Origin: Nitrospinota bacterium
GTDB taxonomy: Bacteria > Nitrospinota_A > UBA7883 > JACRGQ01
Direction of reading: 5' to 3'
Assembly (NCBI GenBank): GCA_029881495.1
Contig: JAOUMJ010000004.1
Coordinates: 28,476-92,475 of the forward strand
Length of the DNA stretch: 64,000 nt
Shown here: one piece after another, positions 41,715-57,768 of the stretch
Position numbering within the stretch: position 1 is the first letter of the stretch
How the letters are laid out: each line of letters begins with the position of its first letter
The notes under the pieces: model-generated
What the model was told of the DNA's origin: nothing
Databases searched by the model: none
The model's input: only the letters and a program-made list of their open reading frames with translations
Program-made: the position numbers and the translations under genes

Positions 41715-44700
41715 ATGACCTCAAAGCCGCAATCAGGGATAGCAAAGCTGATTTTTTCCCCTTGGGGAGCCGTATTGGTATGGAGTGTCTTTATCGCCAT
41801 CTCCCTTCTGTGGAACATCAGCCACCATAGGAAAGACACCCTGGAAATGGCGGTCAAGGAAGCAACCATCCACTTCAACAAGGATCAGGCTTTCAGGTAC
41901 TGGGTTACTTCGCATGGCGGCGTTTACGTCCCTGTGGATGAAAGAACACCTCCAAATCCTCTTCTTTCGCATGTGCCGGAAAGGGATATCGAAACCAAAT
42001 CGGGAAAAAAACTTACCCTGATGAATCCCGCTTACGCCTTGCGCCAGTTGATGAACGATTACAGCGACAAATACGGGATAAAAGGGCGCATTACGAGTCT
42101 GAAACTCCTTAACCCGGCAAACGCTCCCGACGAGTGGGAAAAGAAAGCGCTAAAGTCCTTCGAGAATGGCGCGGCTGAAGCGGTTGAATTCACCAAGATC
42201 GACGGCGTTCCGTTTCTGAGGTTCATGCGTCCGATGATCACCGAAGAGGGATGTCTTAAATGTCACGCGCATCAAGGGTACAAGGTCGGCGATGTGAGGG
42301 GTGGGGTCGGGGTAATCCTTCCGGTACAGCCGTATATGGAAATAGAGAAAAGCGAAGTTGCATCAATAGCCATCTCGCACAACCTGTTCTGGATAATCGG
42401 GCTTTTTGCCATCGGGTTCGTATCGAGGCTGAATAAAAAGAGGATACAGGAAAAGAGCGAGGCCGAACAGGCAGTTTTCCTTTTCAGGACCCTTCTTGAC
42501 CGCTCCAGCGACGCCATCACCGTTGTTGATCCCGACAACGGAAGGTTCCTCGATTTCAATGAAAAGTTCTGCGCTAATCTCGGTTACGGACGCCATGAGA
42601 TCATGGGGAAGAGCATTATTGATATCGATTCAACCATCAAGGATATCTACGAGTGGAACAAGCGAATTGAAGAGCTGGAGAAACATGAAGAGCTTGTTTT
42701 TGAGAGTGTGCATGTCCGGAAGGATGGCTACAAATTTCCGGTAGAGGTCAGCGTAAAGCTTGTTCGGGAAAAAGGGAAGAGGTTTATCATTGGAGTCACC
42801 AGGGATATTACGGAGAGAAAGCGCGCGGAAGAGGCGCTCTTGCGGAGCGAGGAAAAATACAGGCTGTTGGTGGAGAGCGGTCTCCTGATCGCGTGGGAAG
42901 CGAAGTTCCCTTCGCGGCAGTTCACCTTTGTAAGCTCGCATGCCGGAAAGCTCACAGGCTACAGCGAAAAGGAGTGGTGCAAGCAGGATTTCTGGGTGAA
43001 CCATCTTTATACCGAAGACAGGGAGAAGGCAATAAAACAGAGCGGGGAGCTTGTCAAAAAAGGTGAGGGTCACACACTCGAATATCGGATGATCGCGAAG
43101 GACGGCAAGGTTATCTGGTTCAAGGATATGGTGAGCGTCATAAAGGATTCGGCCTCGGCGCCTGTCGGCCTGCGCGGGTTCCTTACCGATATAACAGAAA
43201 GAAAAAACATGGAAGATCTTGCCAAGAGCAGGGGGGAATCCCTCGCCAGAGCGCAGGAGATAGCGCACATAGGGAGCTGGAGCTGGGATGTTCAAACAGG
43301 CCATCTCTACTGGTCCGACGAAAATTTCAGGCTCTTCGGATTCTCTCCCCAGGAATTCGAGCCTACGTATGAAAAGTTCCTTGAAATTTTACATCCATCC
43401 GATAGAGAGAGCGTGATCCAGGCCGTCAATCTCACGCTGGAGGGGGGCGGGAATTACGATATTGAACATAGGATCGTCCGTCCCGACGGCACGGTAAGGC
43501 TGATACATGGGCAGGGGAGGGTTGAATACGGGAGGGACGGAACGCCTGCAAGGATGTATGGCACGGGACACGATATCACCGATCAGCGGAAATCCGAGGA
43601 GACCATGCGTCTGCAGAGCGAGATGATGGCGAACATGGGGGAGGGGGTTCTGCTGATAAAGGCCGACAACATGAAAATAGTTCACGCGAATTCCAGACTT
43701 GAGAAGATGTTCGGCTATGGTGAGGGGGAGCTTTTGGACAAAGAGGTCGCCATACTTAACGCGCCCACGGAACGCGATCCGAAGGAGACCGCGAGGGGAA
43801 TAGTCACTCTGCTGCAGGAAAAAGGTTTCTGGCAGGGGGAGGTTCACAATATCAAAAAGGACGGTTCCACGTTCTGGTGTTTTGCGTCAATCGCGGGGTT
43901 CGACCACCAGGAGTACGGGAAGGTCTGGATATCGGTGCATGCCGACATAACCGAAAACAAACGCGCAGAGGAAGAAAAACTTCTTTTCAGGAGGCTTGTC
44001 AACAGATCTAACGACATGATCCTTCTGGTCGACCCGGAGAGCGCGCTCATTCTCGATATAAACGACAAGGGGTGCGAGCACCTCGGATATGACCGTGAAG
44101 AGTTGATGAAGATGCGGGTAATAGATTTCGACGCAACCGTAAGTGAAGTTGAAGCGTGGCAGGCACACACTGCGGAGCTGGAAGCTAAGGATTCACTCCT
44201 CTTTGAAAGCGTTCATATAAGAAAAGACGGCGCCCGGATACCGGTAGAGATAAACGTAAAGCTGGTTTCGGAGAGCGGCAGAAGCTTTATAATCGGCGTG
44301 GTTCGGGATATATCCGACAGAAAGCGCGCCGAAGAAGAGCTGAGAAACAGCCAGAAGATACTCGCCCGCGCCCAGAAGATAGCAAATATTGGAAACTGGA
44401 CATGGGATGTGCCGGATCAGAAGTTCAGCTGGTCGGATGAGCTCTATCACATACTCGGTTTAAGCGAGAAGAAGGGGAAGGCGGATTACCTGGCGATACT
44501 GGAGACGACCCACCCGGAGGAGAGGGAAGGATTGAAGCGGGCAATTTTCGATGCGCTCGAAGAGAAAAAGCCATGGAACCTTGATCACAGAATAGTTCTT
44601 GAGGATGGGAATATTCGCGTAGTGCATCACCAGGGGGAGGTCACCTTGAACAGCGATGAGGAGGTCCTCCTCATCGAAGGGACGTTGCAGGATATTACCG

Positions 44701-46184
44701 AACGGAAGGAGGCCGAGCGCGCCCTGGAAAAGTCGGAGAGAAATATCAGGGCGATAGTCAAATCGGTCGGAGAAGGGATAGTCGTTGCCAATCGTGATTC
44801 GCGGGTGACATTCGTGAACGGAGAGCTCTGCGAAATTTTCGGCTGTTCCGAAGAGGAGATTATCGGACAGCCGCTCGAAATACTTATGCCGGAGCGTTTC
44901 AGGGAATCTCACAGGACGTCATTCAAGAGATATCTGGAAGGTGGGAAAGCGAGGGTCGTAGGGAAGAGGATCGAACTGGAAGGCCTTCGAAAGGATGGCT
45001 CGGAGTTCCCGCTTGAACTGAGGATCGAGGAGTCGGTATGGGATCACCAGGAGAAATTCTTCGTAGGCGCGATAAGGGATATTACTGAAAGCAGGCGAAT
45101 CTTCGAGGAGCTCCGAAAGGCGAAGGAAGAGGCTGAAGGGGCCACAAAACTGAAGGACAAGTTTGTGTCGATGGTCTCGCACGACCTCAAGGGGCCGCTT
45201 GGGAACATGATGGGATACCTGAAACTGCTGTTGAACGAGCAGGCCGAGCCGCTGGGGGAAGGGGCAAATGTCATCCTCGGGTCCGCGCTGAAATGCGGCG
45301 AGGGGATGATAAGCCTGATAGAAGAACTCCTGAATATCTCCCGGCTTAAGACCGGTAAGCTGGTTCCGCAGATGAGATTCCACGATCTGTATGTTGTCTC
45401 ATTGAGAGCGCTTTCGGGTCTCAGCTATCTCGCCCTCCAGAAAGGGATCGAAATTGTTAACGAAATAAAGCCCGGTGCGAGGGTCTTCGGAGACGAGCAG
45501 CTCCTTTCGGAGGTTGTCGCTAACGTCCTTTCTAACTCGATAAAATTCAGCGGGCGCGACAGCAGGATAACGATATCCCACTCCGCAGGAGAGAAGACAC
45601 TCCTTGCCATCAAGGATAACGGAGTGGGAATTCCGCCCGAAAAAATTGAATTCCTGTTTGATTATGAGGTGAAGACATCGACCGTCGGAACCGCCGGGGA
45701 GACCGGCACCGGCCTCGGTCTCCCGCTGGCAATGGATATCGTCAAGGCGCATGGGGGGGATATATCGGTGGATTCAAAGCCGGATGCCGGGAGCAGCTTC
45801 ACTATTGCGCTTCCGGTCGTGACGCCGAGGATCCTCGTGGCGGATGACGATGAAGGTGTACTCCATATCATCAGAACGATCCTTGCGGATGAGTCGGTGG
45901 AGATAATCGAAGCGCTCGACGGCAAGGAGGCGATGGAGCTCATCAGGGAGAAGGCTCCGCACTTTATAATCGCCGATTTCCACATGCCTGAGATCGACGG
46001 CCTAAAGCTCCTCGAAAGGGTGAAAAAAGAGAAGTCGATCAAGAACGCGGTATTCTTTATCATGACAAGCGACAAGGATACAGAGATAAAGGAGAGGGCG
46101 TTCCAGCTTGGGGCGGATGATTTTCTAAACAAACCGATATTGAAGGGGGACCTCCTCCCCAGGGTGAGGAGATATATAATTTAG
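41715..46184 (+). CDS. giant multi-PAS hybrid sensor histidine kinase with N-terminal CxxCH heme-type periplasmic domain
   Basis: 1489 aa; periplasmic N-domain with CLKCH motif (near 42252-42266); TM helix; at least five PAS/PAC modules; H-box SMVSHDLKGPL; HATPase_c; C-terminal REC. Confidence 0.85.
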   Translation: MTSKPQSGIAKLIFSPWGAVLVWSVFIAISLLWNISHHRKDTLEMAVKEATIHFNKDQAFRYWVTSHGGVYVPVDERTPPNPLLSHVPERDIETKSGKKLTLMNPAYALRQLMNDYSDKYGIKGRITSLKLLNPANAPDEWEKKALKSFENGAAEAVEFTKIDGVPFLRFMRPMITEEGCLKCHAHQGYKVGDVRGGVGVILPVQPYMEIEKSEVASIAISHNLFWIIGLFAIGFVSRLNKKRIQEKSEAEQAVFLFRTLLDRSSDAITVVDPDNGRFLDFNEKFCANLGYGRHEIMGKSIIDIDSTIKDIYEWNKRIEELEKHEELVFESVHVRKDGYKFPVEVSVKLVREKGKRFIIGVTRDITERKRAEEALLRSEEKYRLLVESGLLIAWEAKFPSRQFTFVSSHAGKLTGYSEKEWCKQDFWVNHLYTEDREKAIKQSGELVKKGEGHTLEYRMIAKDGKVIWFKDMVSVIKDSASAPVGLRGFLTDITERKNMEDLAKSRGESLARAQEIAHIGSWSWDVQTGHLYWSDENFRLFGFSPQEFEPTYEKFLEILHPSDRESVIQAVNLTLEGGGNYDIEHRIVRPDGTVRLIHGQGRVEYGRDGTPARMYGTGHDITDQRKSEETMRLQSEMMANMGEGVLLIKADNMKIVHANSRLEKMFGYGEGELLDKEVAILNAPTERDPKETARGIVTLLQEKGFWQGEVHNIKKDGSTFWCFASIAGFDHQEYGKVWISVHADITENKRAEEEKLLFRRLVNRSNDMILLVDPESALILDINDKGCEHLGYDREELMKMRVIDFDATVSEVEAWQAHTAELEAKDSLLFESVHIRKDGARIPVEINVKLVSESGRSFIIGVVRDISDRKRAEEELRNSQKILARAQKIANIGNWTWDVPDQKFSWSDELYHILGLSEKKGKADYLAILETTHPEEREGLKRAIFDALEEKKPWNLDHRIVLEDGNIRVVHHQGEVTLNSDEEVLLIEGTLQDITERKEAERALEKSERNIRAIVKSVGEGIVVANRDSRVTFVNGELCEIFGCSEEEIIGQPLEILMPERFRESHRTSFKRYLEGGKARVVGKRIELEGLRKDGSEFPLELRIEESVWDHQEKFFVGAIRDITESRRIFEELRKAKEEAEGATKLKDKFVSMVSHDLKGPLGNMMGYLKLLLNEQAEPLGEGANVILGSALKCGEGMISLIEELLNISRLKTGKLVPQMRFHDLYVVSLRALSGLSYLALQKGIEIVNEIKPGARVFGDEQLLSEVVANVLSNSIKFSGRDSRITISHSAGEKTLLAIKDNGVGIPPEKIEFLFDYEVKTSTVGTAGETGTGLGLPLAMDIVKAHGGDISVDSKPDAGSSFTIALPVVTPRILVADDDEGVLHIIRTILADESVEIIEALDGKEAMELIREKAPHFIIADFHMPEIDGLKLLERVKKEKSIKNAVFFIMTSDKDTEIKERAFQLGADDFLNKPILKGDLLPRVRRYII

Positions 46185-50310: not shown

Positions 50311-51819
50311 TTATTCTAAACCTCTTTGTGGTTTTTTAGCTCCTTTTTCCAGAAGTGAGAGGTAGAGCTCTTCGTACTTCTTCGCCGACCCCTTCCATGA
50401 GTGATCTTGCGACATTCCGTTCCTCATGATCCTCGTCCATTCGGCACGGTCGCCAAACGCCTTTATCCCCCGCTTTGCGGCGTCGAGGAATTCCCCCGCT
50501 TCCGGTTTGCTGAAAACAAAACCATTCCCTCTTTCAGGGTTGGAGGTCCAGTCGGTGACGGTATCGGCAAGCCCCCCCGTAGAGCGGACAAGCGGGACCG
50601 TGCCGTACCGAAGGGAGAACATCTGGTTTAAACCGCACGGCTCAAATCGGGACGGCATTAGAAAAATGTCGGATCCCGCCTCGATAAGGTGGGCGATGGT
50701 GTTGTCGAATCCGATTTTGAGCGCCACCCTTCCCGGATGCTTTTTGGCGAGTGATGTAAAGAAAGATTCGTACTCCTTCTGTCCGGTTCCAAGGATGACG
50801 AGGTTCATCCTCTCCTCCATCAGTTTTTCCGCTGAGTCGGCGATTATGTCGCAACCCTTCTGCTCGATAAGTCGTGAGACCATGCCGAAGATCGGGGTAT
50901 CCTCCCCACCGGTCAAACCAAACCGGTCGATCAGCGCTTTTCTGCAGTGACTCTTCCCTTCAAGGCTGTTAATCGAAAAATTGGCTGGTATAAGCCGGTC
51001 GGTCTCCGGGTTCCATTCGTCGGTGTCGATCCCGTTCAATATTCCGGCGAGATCCTCCTTCCGTTTTTCGAGGAACGGTTCAAGTCCGAAGCCTAGCTCC
51101 GGGGTGAGTATTTCGCGGGCGTATGTGGGGCTGACGGTTGTCAGCGCGTCGGCAAAAAGTATCGCGCTTTTGAGGAGCGCGAGCTTTCCGTACTGCTCCA
51201 CTCCATCAATGGAGAATAGCTCTTCGGGTAGGGTGGTCAGTTTGAACGACTCTTTCGGAAAAAGTCCCTGGTATGCGAGATTGTGTATCGAAAAAACCGA
51301 AACAGTCCCCTTGAGCGGGGAGCGGTCAATCCCCCTCTCCAGTCGGAGTAACAGCGGAATGAGCCCCCCCTGCCAGTCGTTTGAATGGATTACATCAGGG
51401 AGAGGCTGTGACGATCTTGCCAATTCGACAACCGCGAGGTCGAAAAAGATGAAGCGTTCATCGTTGTTTTCATAGTCCCCGTTCTCATCGCCATACGGGT
51501 TTGGAAGTCCCCCGAAAAGCTCCGGCTGGTCGATAAACAGGGCTTCGGTATTTTCAGCTATTTTTTTTGAAAAAACTGCGGCATGAAAAATTTTTTTTCC
51601 AACTTTTTTTTCAATTGTGAACGGGAGCCTGGTGAAACCGCTTCTGTCGATCGAACCGTAAAGCGGGAGGATCACTTTGACATTGTGGCCAAGTCTTCCA
51701 AGCTCTACCGGGAGTGAATAGGAGACATCGGCCAAACCCCCTGTTTTTACAAAGGGTTTGACCTCTGATGAGGCAAAAAAGATGCAAAGACTCTTCTCTT
51801 GGCTAATTGCGGCCCCCAA
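50311..51819 (-). CDS. glgA: glycogen synthase
   Basis: N-terminal KTGGLADV motif; GT-B fold size (~500 aa). Confidence 0.88.
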   Translation of the reverse strand: MGAAISQEKSLCIFFASSEVKPFVKTGGLADVSYSLPVELGRLGHNVKVILPLYGSIDRSGFTRLPFTIEKKVGKKIFHAAVFSKKIAENTEALFIDQPELFGGLPNPYGDENGDYENNDERFIFFDLAVVELARSSQPLPDVIHSNDWQGGLIPLLLRLERGIDRSPLKGTVSVFSIHNLAYQGLFPKESFKLTTLPEELFSIDGVEQYGKLALLKSAILFADALTTVSPTYAREILTPELGFGLEPFLEKRKEDLAGILNGIDTDEWNPETDRLIPANFSINSLEGKSHCRKALIDRFGLTGGEDTPIFGMVSRLIEQKGCDIIADSAEKLMEERMNLVILGTGQKEYESFFTSLAKKHPGRVALKIGFDNTIAHLIEAGSDIFLMPSRFEPCGLNQMFSLRYGTVPLVRSTGGLADTVTDWTSNPERGNGFVFSKPEAGEFLDAAKRGIKAFGDRAEWTRIMRNGMSQDHSWKGSAKKYEELYLSLLEKGAKKPQRGLE

Positions 51820-51975
51820 AATGTGAAAGATTACCGAGCCAGAATATCATGAAAAAAGGGGTAAATCGGCAAGGAAAAAGTGGCGATATTTTTTTATTTT
51901 TTTCTTTGCAGGGGGTTGACAACCTGGTAAATATGTGCAAATATTAGTCATAGAATTAATTGGAATAGTAGCTAT

Positions 51976-52006
51976 TTGACAATGAACTATTTTAAATTAA
52001 TAAATA
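51976..52006 (+). promoter_or_regulatory. candidate sigma-70-type promoter for the RHH gene
   Basis: TTGACA at 51976-51981, 16-17 nt spacer, A/T-rich -10-like TAATAA; second TTGACA at 51916-51921; followed by GGGGG RBS and ATG 52022. Confidence 0.4.
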
Positions 52007-52021
52007 AATGGGGGTAAGTTG

Positions 52022-52198
52022 ATGGCTGGCTCGAAGAAAAAGGTTCCGGTTACTACCCATTTATACGAGGACCAGGTTGAAATGCTCAACAAGATCGCCA
52101 AGGAGTTGCAGGTGACCAAGGCTGTGCTCTTTCGAACGGCTATTGAGGAGCTGTTGAAGAAATACGAGAACAAGCAACTCGACATTGGGATTAAATAG
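52022..52198 (+). CDS. ribbon-helix-helix (CopG/Arc-like) small DNA-binding protein, 58 aa
   Basis: Not in ORF track (<60 aa). ATG with GGGGG RBS; N-terminal basic strand (KKKVPVTTHLYEDQ) followed by two helices. Fold assignment by pattern only. Confidence 0.5.
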   Translation: MAGSKKKVPVTTHLYEDQVEMLNKIAKELQVTKAVLFRTAIEELLKKYENKQLDIGIK

Positions 52199-52248
52199 GG
52201 ATTCTGTTTCAGGAACAGAAAACTAAATTAAGAAAGGAGGGTAGCAAA

Positions 52249-52341
52249 ATGGCAACTAAGAAAAAAGCTAAGAAAAAGGCCACAAAGAAAAAAGCAGCTA
52301 AGAAAAAAGTAGCGAAGAAGAAATCAAAAAAGAAGAAATAA
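52249..52341 (+). CDS. 30-aa poly-lysine micro-protein (MATKKKAKKKATKKKAAKKKVAKKKSKKKK)
   Basis: Not in ORF track. Strong RBS aaggaggg 7 nt upstream of ATG; 20 of 30 codons are Lys in repeating KKK-A-x units; followed by intrinsic terminator. Confidence 0.45.
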   Translation: MATKKKAKKKATKKKAAKKKVAKKKSKKKK

Positions 52342-52424
52342 AAAAATAGGAAAATCATGAAGTCGGCCTTTGTTGCGGCACGCAACATATGGCGGACCTT
52401 AAGAGAGCATAGCTGTTCTTTTGA

Positions 52425-52465
52425 GCCGGGAGGCGAGCCAAGGAAAGCCTCCCGGCTTTTTTTTT
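52425..52465 (+). terminator. Rho-independent terminator
   Basis: Perfect 11-bp stem AGCCGGGAGGC / GCCTCCCGGCT with 11-nt loop, followed by T9 run. Confidence 0.8.
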
Positions 52466-52567
52466 ACCAAATTCACCAGTTCAATCCAGCAATATATAGG
52501 AAATTGTCATCTCCACGTCTGTTAGACGTTCCCTATTCGATCAAAAAGGGGTAATATCTACCCCGAT

Positions 52568-53686
52568 ATGGAAGGTATGCGCAAGACGGGGAAGGGTGTT
52601 TTTCCAATACAGCTTATAAAACACGCGGTCCAGAAAGGTTTTATTCAGGCGCGCGAACCGATAAGGAGCGACCAGTACCAGCCGTCGAGCATTGATCTCC
52701 GCCTTGGGGAGAAGGCTTACCGTATCAGGAGTTCCTTCCTCCCTCAGAAACGGAAGGTCGAAGAGATACTGGGGGAGCTTGAGATGTACGAGATAGATCT
52801 CAAAAAGGGGGCGATACTCGAAAAGGGCAATGTCTATCTAATCCCGCTTCTTGAGGAGCTGAACCTCCCGGAAGATGTTTACGCGAGGGCGAATCCGAAA
52901 TCGTCGACCGGCAGGCTCGACATATTCACAAGGGTAATTACCGACAATTCCCACAGGTTCGAGGATGTCGCGGCGGGATACCGGGGCAAACTTTACCTGG
53001 AGGTGGTCCCCCGCTCATTCACTATCAAGCTCAAGACAGGATTATGCCTGAACCAGTTGCGGTTATTCAGGGGTGATTCATCCCTTTCCGATATTGAAAT
53101 CGCCAAGATACATGAGGAGAGTCCTCTTCTCTACTGCTATTCGAGGGAGAGCATAGTGCCGGTGCTCAACGACGGCCTCTTTGTGAGCATTGAGGTCGTA
53201 AAGGAGGGGAACGGCGGCGTGATCGGCTATATGGCGAAGAAGAACAGCACGGTAATAGATCTTTCCAACGTGGGGGGGTACAGGGTCCGTGATTTCTGGG
53301 ATCCTATAACTTCGCCGGAGGAGAATTTTCTGATACTTGAACCGGAGGAGTTTTACATATTCGCGTCGAAGGAGCGGGTGAGGGTACCGGTTGACTGCGC
53401 CGCGGAGATGGCGGAGTACGACGCCGGATCGGGGGAGTTAAGGACACATTACGCCGGATTTTTCGATTCGGGATTCGGCGGGGGGAGCGTTGAGGGGACG
53501 AAGGCGGTTCTCGAAGTGAGGCCTCACGATGTGCCGTTCCGCATTGAGGACGGGCAGATATTTTTCAAGCTCCGTTACGAGAGGATGCTGGAAACGCCTA
53601 ACGTCGCCTATGGCGAGAAACTTGGTTCGAACTATTTCAATCAGGGATTACGGCTCAGCAAACATTTTGTAATGGAAAGCGAATAG
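52568..53686 (+). CDS. long-form 2'-deoxycytidine 5'-triphosphate deaminase (DCD family, putative)
   Basis: 372 aa; dUTPase-fold motif NPKSSTGRLDIF in first half and a second related half. Family assignment from motif and length. Confidence 0.65.
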   Translation: MEGMRKTGKGVFPIQLIKHAVQKGFIQAREPIRSDQYQPSSIDLRLGEKAYRIRSSFLPQKRKVEEILGELEMYEIDLKKGAILEKGNVYLIPLLEELNLPEDVYARANPKSSTGRLDIFTRVITDNSHRFEDVAAGYRGKLYLEVVPRSFTIKLKTGLCLNQLRLFRGDSSLSDIEIAKIHEESPLLYCYSRESIVPVLNDGLFVSIEVVKEGNGGVIGYMAKKNSTVIDLSNVGGYRVRDFWDPITSPEENFLILEPEEFYIFASKERVRVPVDCAAEMAEYDAGSGELRTHYAGFFDSGFGGGSVEGTKAVLEVRPHDVPFRIEDGQIFFKLRYERMLETPNVAYGEKLGSNYFNQGLRLSKHFVMESE

Positions 53687-56486: not shown

Positions 56487-57614
56487 TTACCGCCTCTTTG
56501 CTGCTGTTGGAAGAGGGATCGTTTCAAGGAATTCCCGGTTGCTGGCCGACTCTTTGAATTTATCAAGGAACATTTTGTATTTTTCTCCCCGCCTGTCGTC
56601 GAGCATTGCCCTGCGCAGAAGCGTCGCCTTTGCGAGGATTTCGGGGTCGAGGAGTTTTTCCTCTTTTCTTGTTCCCGATTTTTGAAAGTTCATCGCCGGA
56701 AAAATTCTGAGGTCGGCCAGGCTTCGCTCAAGGACGAGCTCGGAGTTTCCGGTCCCTTTGAATTCCTGGAAGATCAGTTCGTCCATTTTGCTACCGGTAT
56801 CGACCAGGATGGAGGCGATAATGGTCAGGCTCCCCCCGCCGTCGACATTCCGCGCGGAGCCGAAAATTTTTCTCGGGAAATCAAGCGCCCCGGTTGATAG
56901 ACCTCCGGTCATGGTCTTTCCGCGGTTATCCATATCTCTGTTGAACGCCCTACCGAGTCTCGTGAGGGAATCGATCATCAGCACTACGTCCCTTCCCGAC
57001 TCAACGAGGCTCTTAACCCTTTCGAATATGAGGTGTGCTACGCGGATATGCTCCTTGTTTGGTTTATCGAAATCGGTCGCGATCACCTCGCCGCCAATGA
57101 GACGCTTGAAGTGCGTAGACTCTTCCGGCCTTTCGTCGGCGAGATAGATTATCTGAGCCATATCCGGATAATTTTTCTTCATCCCCATGGCCATTTCTTC
57201 CATTATGGTGGTTTTACCGGCTTTCGGCGGAGAGACTATCAGGAAGCGTTGCCCCTTTCCGATAGGTATCAGCAGGTCGATAATCCTTGTGGAGACAGTA
57301 TTCTGATCGGTTTCAAGAATAAGCTGTTCATTCGGATCGATGGCTGTCAGTTTGGGAAACGGCACCCGTTTTTTTATTTCGTCCGGGCTTCTTCCGTTTA
57401 TCGATTCTATCGATTCAAGGGAGATGTTCGGCTGGTTTTTCAGCGCCTTCCCGGTTCCGGTGACTTCCATGCCTGTTTTAAGCCAGTTGGTCTGAATGAG
57501 TTTTGGCGACAGGTATGGATCGGTCGGCGCGATCCCTATGTCGTTGGTTACTGATCTTAAAAAACCGAATCCTTTCGGAACGATTTCAAGAATGCCTGTT
57601 ACGGATTCTCCCAT
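56487..57614 (-). CDS. rho: transcription termination factor Rho (short N-terminus)
   Basis: OB-fold RNA-binding motif GILEIVPKGFGFLRS; Walker A PPKAGKTT; Q/R loops; C-terminal ATPase domain. ATG 57614 with AAAGG RBS; ORF track start is 57677. Confidence 0.88.
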   Translation of the reverse strand: MGESVTGILEIVPKGFGFLRSVTNDIGIAPTDPYLSPKLIQTNWLKTGMEVTGTGKALKNQPNISLESIESINGRSPDEIKKRVPFPKLTAIDPNEQLILETDQNTVSTRIIDLLIPIGKGQRFLIVSPPKAGKTTIMEEMAMGMKKNYPDMAQIIYLADERPEESTHFKRLIGGEVIATDFDKPNKEHIRVAHLIFERVKSLVESGRDVVLMIDSLTRLGRAFNRDMDNRGKTMTGGLSTGALDFPRKIFGSARNVDGGGSLTIIASILVDTGSKMDELIFQEFKGTGNSELVLERSLADLRIFPAMNFQKSGTRKEEKLLDPEILAKATLLRRAMLDDRRGEKYKMFLDKFKESASNREFLETIPLPTAAKRR

Positions 57615-57768
57615 TTCTATACCTTTATAAGTTTTTTGGTTGCATTCCAAAACGTGGAATAAACAGCCGAGCCGCAAAGTTCAAATGCGGTAGGCGGATA
57701 TCAAAAAATTCGAACTAGAAAAGTCGTATGGTCCCCTAGTTGGAGTTCTAATAATGACTATACAGGAT

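Follow-up and report, generated by a model that had tools for sequence, protein, structure and literature searches.

A predicted operon of uncultured Nitrospinota that joins a ribbon-helix-helix protein gene to a poly-lysine microprotein gene

We analysed a 64,000-nucleotide (nt) stretch of DNA from a Nitrospinota bacterium (assembly GCA_029881495.1, contig JAOUMJ010000004.1, positions 28,476 to 92,475 of the forward strand), hereafter called the window and numbered from its first letter. The subject of this report is an AT-rich gap in the window (GC content 0.34-0.45, against 0.50-0.58 in the flanks), which a preliminary description, based on the letters alone, had read as an unlisted micro-operon, complete with promoter and terminator, encoding a 58-amino-acid (aa) ribbon-helix-helix (RHH)-like protein and a 30-aa lysine-rich peptide. 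Both open reading frames (ORFs) are present as described, and the AT-rich gap and the terminator were also found where they had been placed. The genes are not unlisted in public data, where both are already gene calls on four contigs and the RHH protein has the NCBI record MDH5541865.1, 'ribbon-helix-helix domain-containing protein [Nitrospinota bacterium]'. They were absent from the ORF list used for that description because both are under its 60-aa length cut-off. The features of the locus are as follows.

51889-52465, + strand: whole operon including promoter and terminator, in the order promoter, RHH gene, poly-lysine ORF, terminator
51889-51915, + strand: A/T-rich tract 5′ of the -35 hexamer, UP-element-like, with a putative function as such; an A- or T-run precedes TTGACA in every orthologous promoter
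51916-51921, + strand: -35 hexamer TTGACA, found by promoter scan
51934-51944, + strand: extended -10, TGTGC (TRTGn) followed by AAATAT, with a spacer of 17 nt
51952-52021, + strand: 5′ untranslated region (UTR), start approximate
51976-51981, + strand: second TTGACA, within the 5′ UTR
52010-52014, + strand: Shine-Dalgarno (SD) sequence of the RHH gene, GGGGG, moderate, within the 5′ UTR
52022-52198, + strand: RHH protein gene, 58 aa, ATG start, supported by Pfam RHH_3, homologues and a structural model
52202-52220, + strand: perfect 7-bp inverted repeat TTCTGTT-TCAGG-AACAGAA, which folds as a small hairpin in the predicted operon RNA
52234-52241, + strand: SD sequence of the poly-lysine ORF, AAGGAGGG, 7 nt before the ATG, conserved
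52249-52341, + strand: poly-lysine microprotein gene, 30 aa, (A/T/V/S)(A)KKK repeats
52362-52397 and 52399-52423, + strand: two 3′ UTR hairpins, found by folding
52425-52465, + strand: Rho-independent terminator, 10-bp GC stem followed by T9
52209-52388, - strand: antisense F/L/A-rich ORF, 59 aa (..FFLAAFFF..)
52568-53686, same strand as the operon: gene for long-form 2′-deoxycytidine 5′-triphosphate (dCTP) deaminase, with DCD_N, DCD and DCD_C domains

The layout of RHH gene, poly-lysine ORF and terminator was found again in 15 independent loci, more than expected by chance, and the pair is thus conserved in relatives. Across the orthologues, the stop codon of the RHH gene and the lysine-rich ORF are 44-74 nt apart, with no terminator between the two cistrons. 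Judged by this conserved gene pair, together with the conserved promoter and the terminator described below, 51889-52465 stands as a genuine bicistronic operon in this uncultured member of the Nitrospinota, and we regard its architecture and its conservation as established. Related loci are designated here by numbers with the prefix L. Clade A comprises the poly-lysine loci including the window, and clade B is a sister clade that has an RNA in the same slot.

The peptide encoded by the second cistron, MATKKKAKKKATKKKAAKKKVAKKKSKKKK, has lysine at 19 of its 30 residues (~63% K and ~23% A, in repeats of 4-5 residues), giving a net charge of about +19. Its 15 orthologues, drawn from genome and metagenome collections, are 18-91 aa long, and a lysine-rich ORF was present in every relative with an RHH protein at least 84% identical to that of the window and enough downstream sequence. 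The coding DNA is a 15-nt tandem repeat, and the length differences among orthologues correspond to whole repeats of 12-15 nt. For example, L030, the closest relative (RHH 97% identical), has an ORF longer by 45 nt, equal to three more xAKKK units. The exact peptide was absent from the protein collection searched, and a homology search with a 59-aa orthologue was uninformative because of low complexity (1 match, E = 0.07).

Several properties of the ORF bear on whether it is translated. A strong ribosome-binding site had been claimed for each gene; this holds for the poly-lysine ORF, which AAGGAGGG precedes by 7 nt, and not for the RHH gene, whose GGGGG is moderate. RAAGGAGG or a near variant (AAGGGGG in L005, AAGGGAGG in L009) lies shortly 5′ of the ATG in all 10 orthologues examined. 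When ten orthologues were compared in all three frames, frame 1 was the sole fully open one in each, and the ATG was kept in the same ten. The wobble positions of the alanine codons vary across orthologues, with all four alanine codons in use. In the predicted fold of the whole operon mRNA, the poly-lysine SD is unpaired and the RHH SD is paired. The lysine codons AAA and AAG are interleaved, leaving no A-run longer than 8 across 11 orthologues; none of 5000 synonymous lysine-codon shuffles matched this, and ~9 runs of at least 9 were expected, although the shuffle count is not a true probability because the orthologues and their repeats are related. Ribosome sliding or slippage on poly(A) tracts is known (PMC4363877), and the codon order here points to selection against such sliding. 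From these signatures the poly-lysine ORF is almost certainly translated, and selection for its translation is, in our view, established.

The antisense ORF at 52209-52388 was considered as a hidden hydrophobic toxin and rejected. Similar mirror ORFs occur in many orthologues, its start is not conserved, and it is absent in L030; it is probably a by-product of the mirrored composition.

The first cistron encodes a protein that scores 35.8 bits (E = 7.7e-9) against Pfam RHH_3 (PF12651), above the gathering cut-off of 21.6, and narrowly passes the cut-off of 20.5 for RHH_1 (PF01402) with 21.3 bits. In BLASTP it was 34% identical to CopG (E = 3e-6). An AlphaFold2 model of the monomer (mean predicted local distance difference test score, 78) has helices at residues 12-29 and 33-54 and an extended N-terminus. 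The best Foldseek matches of this model were CopG, Arc, ParD and related RHH proteins, at a non-significant E of ~2, and a profile search against sequences of solved structures gave chance matches only, plus one CopG-family entry at E = 0.34. On the family scores, the product is a true RHH protein, as had been suggested from the sequence, and we take this fold class as established; it is of CopG/Arc type, and the two helices of the model agree. An in-frame TTG at 52019 is an alternative start that would yield 59 aa. The chain stops ~10 residues past helix 2, and the family shares a conserved C-terminal tail, KQLDIGIK.

Homologues of the RHH protein form 56 clusters, 66-100% identical, and all those with a source name come from a Nitrospinota or Nitrospinae metagenome-assembled genome (MAG) or metagenome bin. 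Across Nitrospinota, identity within the family is 64-100%. A hidden Markov model search of 1.84 billion cluster representatives (clustered at 50% identity) placed only 2 representatives in the family; next came generic RHH proteins that share a VTTHL...VTKAvxFR signature, the score falling from 128 to 65 bits. By these searches the family is tight and restricted to Nitrospinota. Between genomes the RHH protein is 86-93% identical to that of the window, compared with 68% for Rho, 62-68% for dCTP deaminase and 56% for GlgA in those genomes (these three window genes, beginning with the deaminase, lie at 52568-53686, 56487-57677 and 50311-51819, and the RHH gene at 52022-52198). Evolution this slow, relative to Rho, the deaminase and GlgA, is unusual for a small protein resembling a transcription factor.

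Residues 16-17 and 39 of the RHH protein (window 52067-52072 and 52136-52138) are diagnostic of the two clades. RHH proteins of the poly-lysine clade have acidic E-D (or E-E, E-S) at 16-17 together with T39, while those of the RNA clade have Q-R and E39. These substitutions may reflect co-evolution with the downstream cargo.

The promoter of the operon is conserved in both clades. In an alignment of 22 loci, each has an A/T tract, TTGACA or a similar hexamer at the equivalent position, a spacer of 16-17 nt and then a clade-specific -10 region, which is TATGTGCAAATAT(T) in the clade of the window and TATGTCAAAATAT in clade B. Promoters were read in 11 poly-lysine loci, and 9 of them keep the sequence TATGTGCAAATATT, differing by no more than 1-3 substitutions. 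Together, a consensus -35 and an extended -10 of the TRTGn type make, by sequence, a very strong promoter architecture. The preliminary description had named TTGACA elements in the plural. The one at 51916-51921 is conserved; the second, at 51976-51981, is lost in L030, which reads TTTAACA there and is otherwise near-identical in the 5′ UTR save for a few substitutions. Given this loss and its place in the 5′ UTR, the second hexamer is not supported as a promoter element.

The -10 region also lies within a near-palindrome, AATATGTGCAAATATT (51930-51945; AATAT-N6-ATATT), which could be an operator for the RHH protein and is the only candidate for one. No other copy of the promoter motif, taken as a possible marker of a regulon, was found in the 64-kb window.

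Within the transcribed leader, 9 nt at 52004-52012 (AUAAAUGGG), in the region of the RHH SD, are perfectly complementary to 52056-52064 (CCCAUUUAU), in RHH codons 12-14. A hairpin masking this SD could lower RHH translation relative to that of the poly-lysine cistron, which we offer as a weak lead; the pairing is partly kept in L030, and no counterpart was seen by eye in L009 or L007.

The perfect inverted repeat between the two genes had been put forward for a DNA-binding test. The repeat is present. L030 and L002 retain the stem with a changed loop, none of the other poly-lysine loci read at sequence level (L005-L013) has the repeat, and its position is ~270 nt downstream of the promoter. 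Perfect 7-bp inverted repeats with a loop of 3-8 nt number 37 in the window (~0.03 per 50 nt), so that the palindrome alone is only weakly above chance; its own sequence is single-copy in the window. We regard it, from its narrow conservation and its position, as a lineage-specific intercistronic RNA hairpin and not a credible operator.

The 136 nt past the poly-lysine stop codon are strongly structured (z = -5.7 against shuffles) and comprise the two hairpins and the terminator. The terminator stem GCCGGGAGGC (52425-52434) pairs with GCCTCCCGGC (52447-52456), followed by T9 (52457-52465); because its loop is 12 nt long, it was missed by a consensus scan and recovered by folding. A GC-rich hairpin with a T-run lies at the equivalent place in most of ten aligned orthologues, L005 and L009 being without a clear T-run. 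By eye, hairpins occur at the 3′ UTR position in most orthologues, and their sequence is not conserved. Searches with Rfam gave no match at gathering threshold in the whole window, and chance-level matches only for 51800-52620 at E up to 10.

A U-rich motif, (G)UUUUCUG, lies just 5′ of the terminator in these otherwise unconserved 3′ UTRs (52411-52422 in the window; also L005, L007, L010, L011 and L012). Such a motif could pair with AAGAAA in the coding region or with the SD.

Relatives whose RHH protein is 64-83% identical to that of the window have the same promoter and no lysine-rich ORF within 4 kb, and carry instead a conserved element directly 3′ of the RHH gene. Indels of 1-2 nt occur in this element, which is therefore not coding. 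It and the RNA gene that often follows it are located as follows.

L014:2178-2357, L017:784-972, L016:4254-4445, L025:4193-4382 and 20 further loci: structured RNA of ~189 nt, directly 3′ of the RHH gene
L014:2464-2650, L016:4766-4988, L029:4411-4598 and 9 others: 6S RNA genes, seemingly with their own promoter, CTTGAG...TGnTATAnAAATAG

A covariance model built from 15 copies of the structured RNA detected 24 copies at 80-188 bits, all in the sister clade, and the RNA matches no Rfam family. It consists of a closing helix (GCAUC with GAUGY), a long-range helix of 13-16 bp, a large internal loop, two covarying hairpins and a terminator. The internal loop contains the near-invariant sequences AAGACCACCAC-N6-GACCACCACC and AGACCACC, and three near-invariant GACCACC motifs are single-stranded. 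In the model-guided alignment, 91% of the cells pair, against 30-49% with slid partners, and in 39 of the 51 pairs both partners have changed, these statistics coming from an alignment fitted to its own covariance model. An independent duplex test on each sequence showed that the long-range helix forms in 15 of 15 RNAs despite their differing sequences. The window and the poly-lysine loci were searched for the GACCACC RNA by pattern and with the covariance model, and neither search found it.

In 12 sister-clade loci, a 6S RNA (Rfam RF00013, 67-106 bits) lies roughly 100-300 nt past the GACCACC RNA. With Rfam, neither the 64-kb window nor the 4 kb around each poly-lysine locus yielded a 6S RNA, and no complementarity was found between the GACCACC motifs of clade B and the adjacent 6S RNA. 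Across ~40 loci, the poly-lysine ORF and the GACCACC RNA never occur together, and L028 has neither. At L028:4001-4908 there is a divergent RHH gene (72% identical, with a VAITTHL strand) with very AT-rich sequence downstream, which may represent a third state of the locus.

As for neighbouring genes, the window shares with 6 of 9 relatives from the genome collection a long-form dCTP deaminase gene 3′ of the operon. The idea that the poly-lysine ORF travels with this gene was rejected, since no lysine-rich ORF lies near the deaminase in the clade-B genome L031 (of one MAG with L023), in Nitrospirota or in other Nitrospinota. The glgA gene was likewise rejected by BLAST as a conserved divergent partner of the RHH gene, being upstream only in the window and in L012. 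Farther upstream, a 1489-aa multi-PAS sensor protein is encoded at 41715-46184, adjoining mutL and a Hda/DnaA-like gene.

The preliminary description had likened the peptide to the tails of histone H1-like nucleoid proteins. The likeness stands in composition and does not extend to family scores. The chlamydial protein Hc2 (HctB; Pfam PF07382, NCBIfam NF038052) also consists of short Lys/Ala-rich repeats forming a polycation expected to bind nucleic acid non-specifically. Its size varies with the number of lysine-rich repeat units, which are pentamers (PMC2848022), and this variable copy number of Lys/Ala-rich tandem repeats is shared by the (A/V/T)AKKK units here. In contrast, Hc2 is 165-237 aa long, so that the 30-aa window peptide is 5-8 times shorter, and the peptide gene follows an RHH gene as the second cistron of an operon and belongs to another phylum. 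The 91-aa orthologue scored 26 bits against HC2 (Pfam cut-off 40) and 12.7 bits against NF038052 (cut-off 135), and the 30-aa window peptide had no match at E up to 10 and belongs to no family that was recognised.

Repeat-based Lys/Ala-rich tails are likewise found in Pseudomonas AlgP (AlgR3) and in the H1-like proteins of Bordetella and Burkholderia (NCBIfam NF038053), for which the 91-aa orthologue scored 16.1 bits against a cut-off of 80. Those proteins, of ~200-350 aa, differ in having non-repeat domains and KPAA-type repeats and in not being adjacent to an RHH gene. The Pseudomonas RHH regulator AmrZ/AlgZ acts at the algD promoter, where AlgP also acts. AlgP organises polyphosphate granules (PMC9239181), which makes polyanions other than DNA plausible targets of the peptide. 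The combination of a folded DNA-binding module with an H1-like polycationic segment has counterparts in mycobacterial HupB and in HupS and DdbA of Streptomyces. In those proteins the two parts form one polypeptide with an HU or DksA module, whereas here they are separate cistrons and the folded part is an RHH protein. DdbA is a further example of a bacterial H1-like protein with a Lys/Ala tail (PMC3643593).

Repressors of the CopG/Arc/MetJ class resemble the RHH protein in being single domains of ~45-58 aa with a basic strand (KKVPVTTHL here, KKRLTITL in CopG) and in being encoded by the first gene of a small operon that they may repress. The protein differs from them in forming a separate Nitrospinota family, marked by a KQLDIGIK tail, and in being far more conserved than typical RHH repressors of plasmids and phages.

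As a whole, the locus is best explained, with a confidence we would call evenly balanced, as a strongly expressed operon of an RHH protein and a polycation resembling an H1 tail. The near-consensus promoter would drive an mRNA of ~510 nt ending at the strong intrinsic terminator, and the operon is probably highly expressed, given its promoter and ribosome-binding sequences. The RHH protein would, like others of its class, form a dimer and bind DNA through its N-terminal beta-ribbon, KKVPVTTHL, perhaps in a global or nucleoid-level role, and would probably repress its own promoter. Its specificity to the phylum and the unusually strong constraint on its sequence fit such a global or nucleoid-level role. 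The poly-lysine peptide would be an intrinsically disordered polycation, comparable to a free Lys/Ala tail of the histone-H1, Hc2 or AlgP type, that may attach, irrespective of sequence, to polyanions such as DNA and possibly RNA or polyphosphate, neutralise their charge and thereby contribute to their compaction or organisation. Repeat number, and hence the dose of charge, would vary freely between lineages.

A number of points weigh against this explanation. The similarity to Hc2 and H1-like proteins is compositional and below threshold by the scores given above, and for this reason we describe the peptide as working like an H1 or Hc2 tail and not as a member of that family. A peptide as short as 18 aa may lack the size to condense DNA unaided. 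Arginine is absent in the 11 orthologues analysed, with few arginines in L039, and charge-based DNA binding leaves this avoidance unexplained. A strong extended -10 accounts for the promoter motif in full, and the motif therefore gives no independent support for an RHH operator. Relatives with a close RHH protein carry the structured RNA in place of the peptide; the RHH protein can therefore do without the peptide, and selection on the slot may concern a function other than nucleoid binding.

In a rival reading the segment, with its A-rich (AAG/AAA)n stretch and structured 3′ UTR, acts mainly as a regulatory RNA, for example as an (ARN)n binder or sponge of the distal face of Hfq or as a small RNA derived from the 3′ UTR, with translation of the peptide being secondary. 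Hfq binds the ARN pattern, which all AAG and AAA codons match, the 3′ UTR of the window is strongly structured, and the slot of the sister clade holds a non-coding RNA with three exposed repeat motifs. Against this, the perfect SD at optimal spacing, the conserved ATG, the single open frame and the avoidance of slippery A-runs all speak for selection on translation, the sequence of the 3′ UTR is unconserved and no Rfam match was obtained, so that we consider a principal role as RNA unlikely. Somewhat less probable still is that the peptide is a basic microprotein associated with the ribosome or with RNA, comparable to bTHX, bS22 or the eL41 type, and not a nucleoid protein. It is tiny and extremely basic, its strong promoter and ideal ribosome-binding site suggest high abundance, and the locus of the sister clade adjoins 6S RNA. 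A five-fold range in length (18-91 aa) among close relatives is nevertheless unexpected for a structurally fixed ribosomal component, and the peptide is absent from the sister clade and matches no ribosomal family.

Ribosome stalling had been suggested in the preliminary description, and in its most specific form the ORF would be a leader peptide that senses Lys-tRNA or ribosome status and controls read-through of the terminator into the dCTP deaminase gene. The order of peptide, two hairpins, terminator and same-strand gene does resemble an attenuator, and the deaminase recurs at this place in most genome-collection relatives. The downstream gene is unrelated to lysine, though, the codon order avoids sliding on poly(A), peptide length differs greatly between orthologues, as do the spacing and sequence of the 3′ UTR, and in other lineages no such peptide precedes the deaminase. 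Furthermore, the transcription unit has no later cistron, the hairpins begin ~20 nt past the stop codon and are unconserved, and no Rfam leader family was found in 51800-52620, so that a stalling role has very little probability. A toxin-antitoxin-like pair, in which an RHH antitoxin and repressor precedes a toxic polycationic peptide, we hold to be more improbable again. The RHH gene comes first, before a small second gene under a single promoter, as in type II systems, and there are weak sub-threshold matches to RHH antitoxins (Antitox_RHH, E = 0.14; RelB-like, E = 0.035). The RHH protein has no C-terminal toxin-binding extension, however, and its family, one and the same throughout the phylum and highly conserved, is retained by the sister clade, where the peptide is missing. 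No toxin family is matched by the peptide, and chromosomal synteny is kept, unlike a mobile or patchy distribution. Hardly any weight can be given to a cationic membrane-active or antimicrobial peptide, which had also been suggested and which the small size and high positive charge would allow. Apart from lysine, the peptide contains only A, T, V and S and has no hydrophobic face at any helical periodicity; it also lacks a signal peptide, and its gene has neither transporter nor immunity genes as neighbours.

A further reading takes in the sister clade as well. The RHH gene would have an exchangeable cargo slot in its 3′ region, and the mutual exclusion of the free poly-lysine microprotein and the GACCACC RNA could mean that they are alternative solutions to one task; we think this rather doubtful. 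For example, both cargoes could modulate the same abundant complex of the RHH protein with nucleic acid, or the same global regulator near 6S RNA, and E16/D17 of the RHH protein (Q/R in the RNA clade) could be a docking surface for the polycation. If true, the locus would represent a two-component nucleoid or regulatory system of a new kind, and a rare exchange of a protein for an RNA at one site.

Nitrospinota includes marine nitrite oxidisers, and few of its members have been cultured. Bacterial H1-like lysine-rich proteins are known from few lineages, with lengths well above 100 aa. Of the readings considered for the function of the peptide, the H1-like one is the likeliest, and under it H1-like chemistry would occur here as a free microprotein of 18-91 aa that has its own ideal ribosome-binding site and is tied to a very highly conserved, phylum-specific RHH protein. 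The undescribed structured RNA beside 6S RNA in the sister clade may hold more general interest than the peptide. The peptide itself, being easily synthesised, would make a clean test case for what a minimal polycation does in a bacterial cell (nucleoid compaction, organisation of polyphosphate or RNA, phase separation), for how long lysine runs are encoded without ribosome slippage, and for evolution by repeat expansion in small ORFs below annotation cut-offs.

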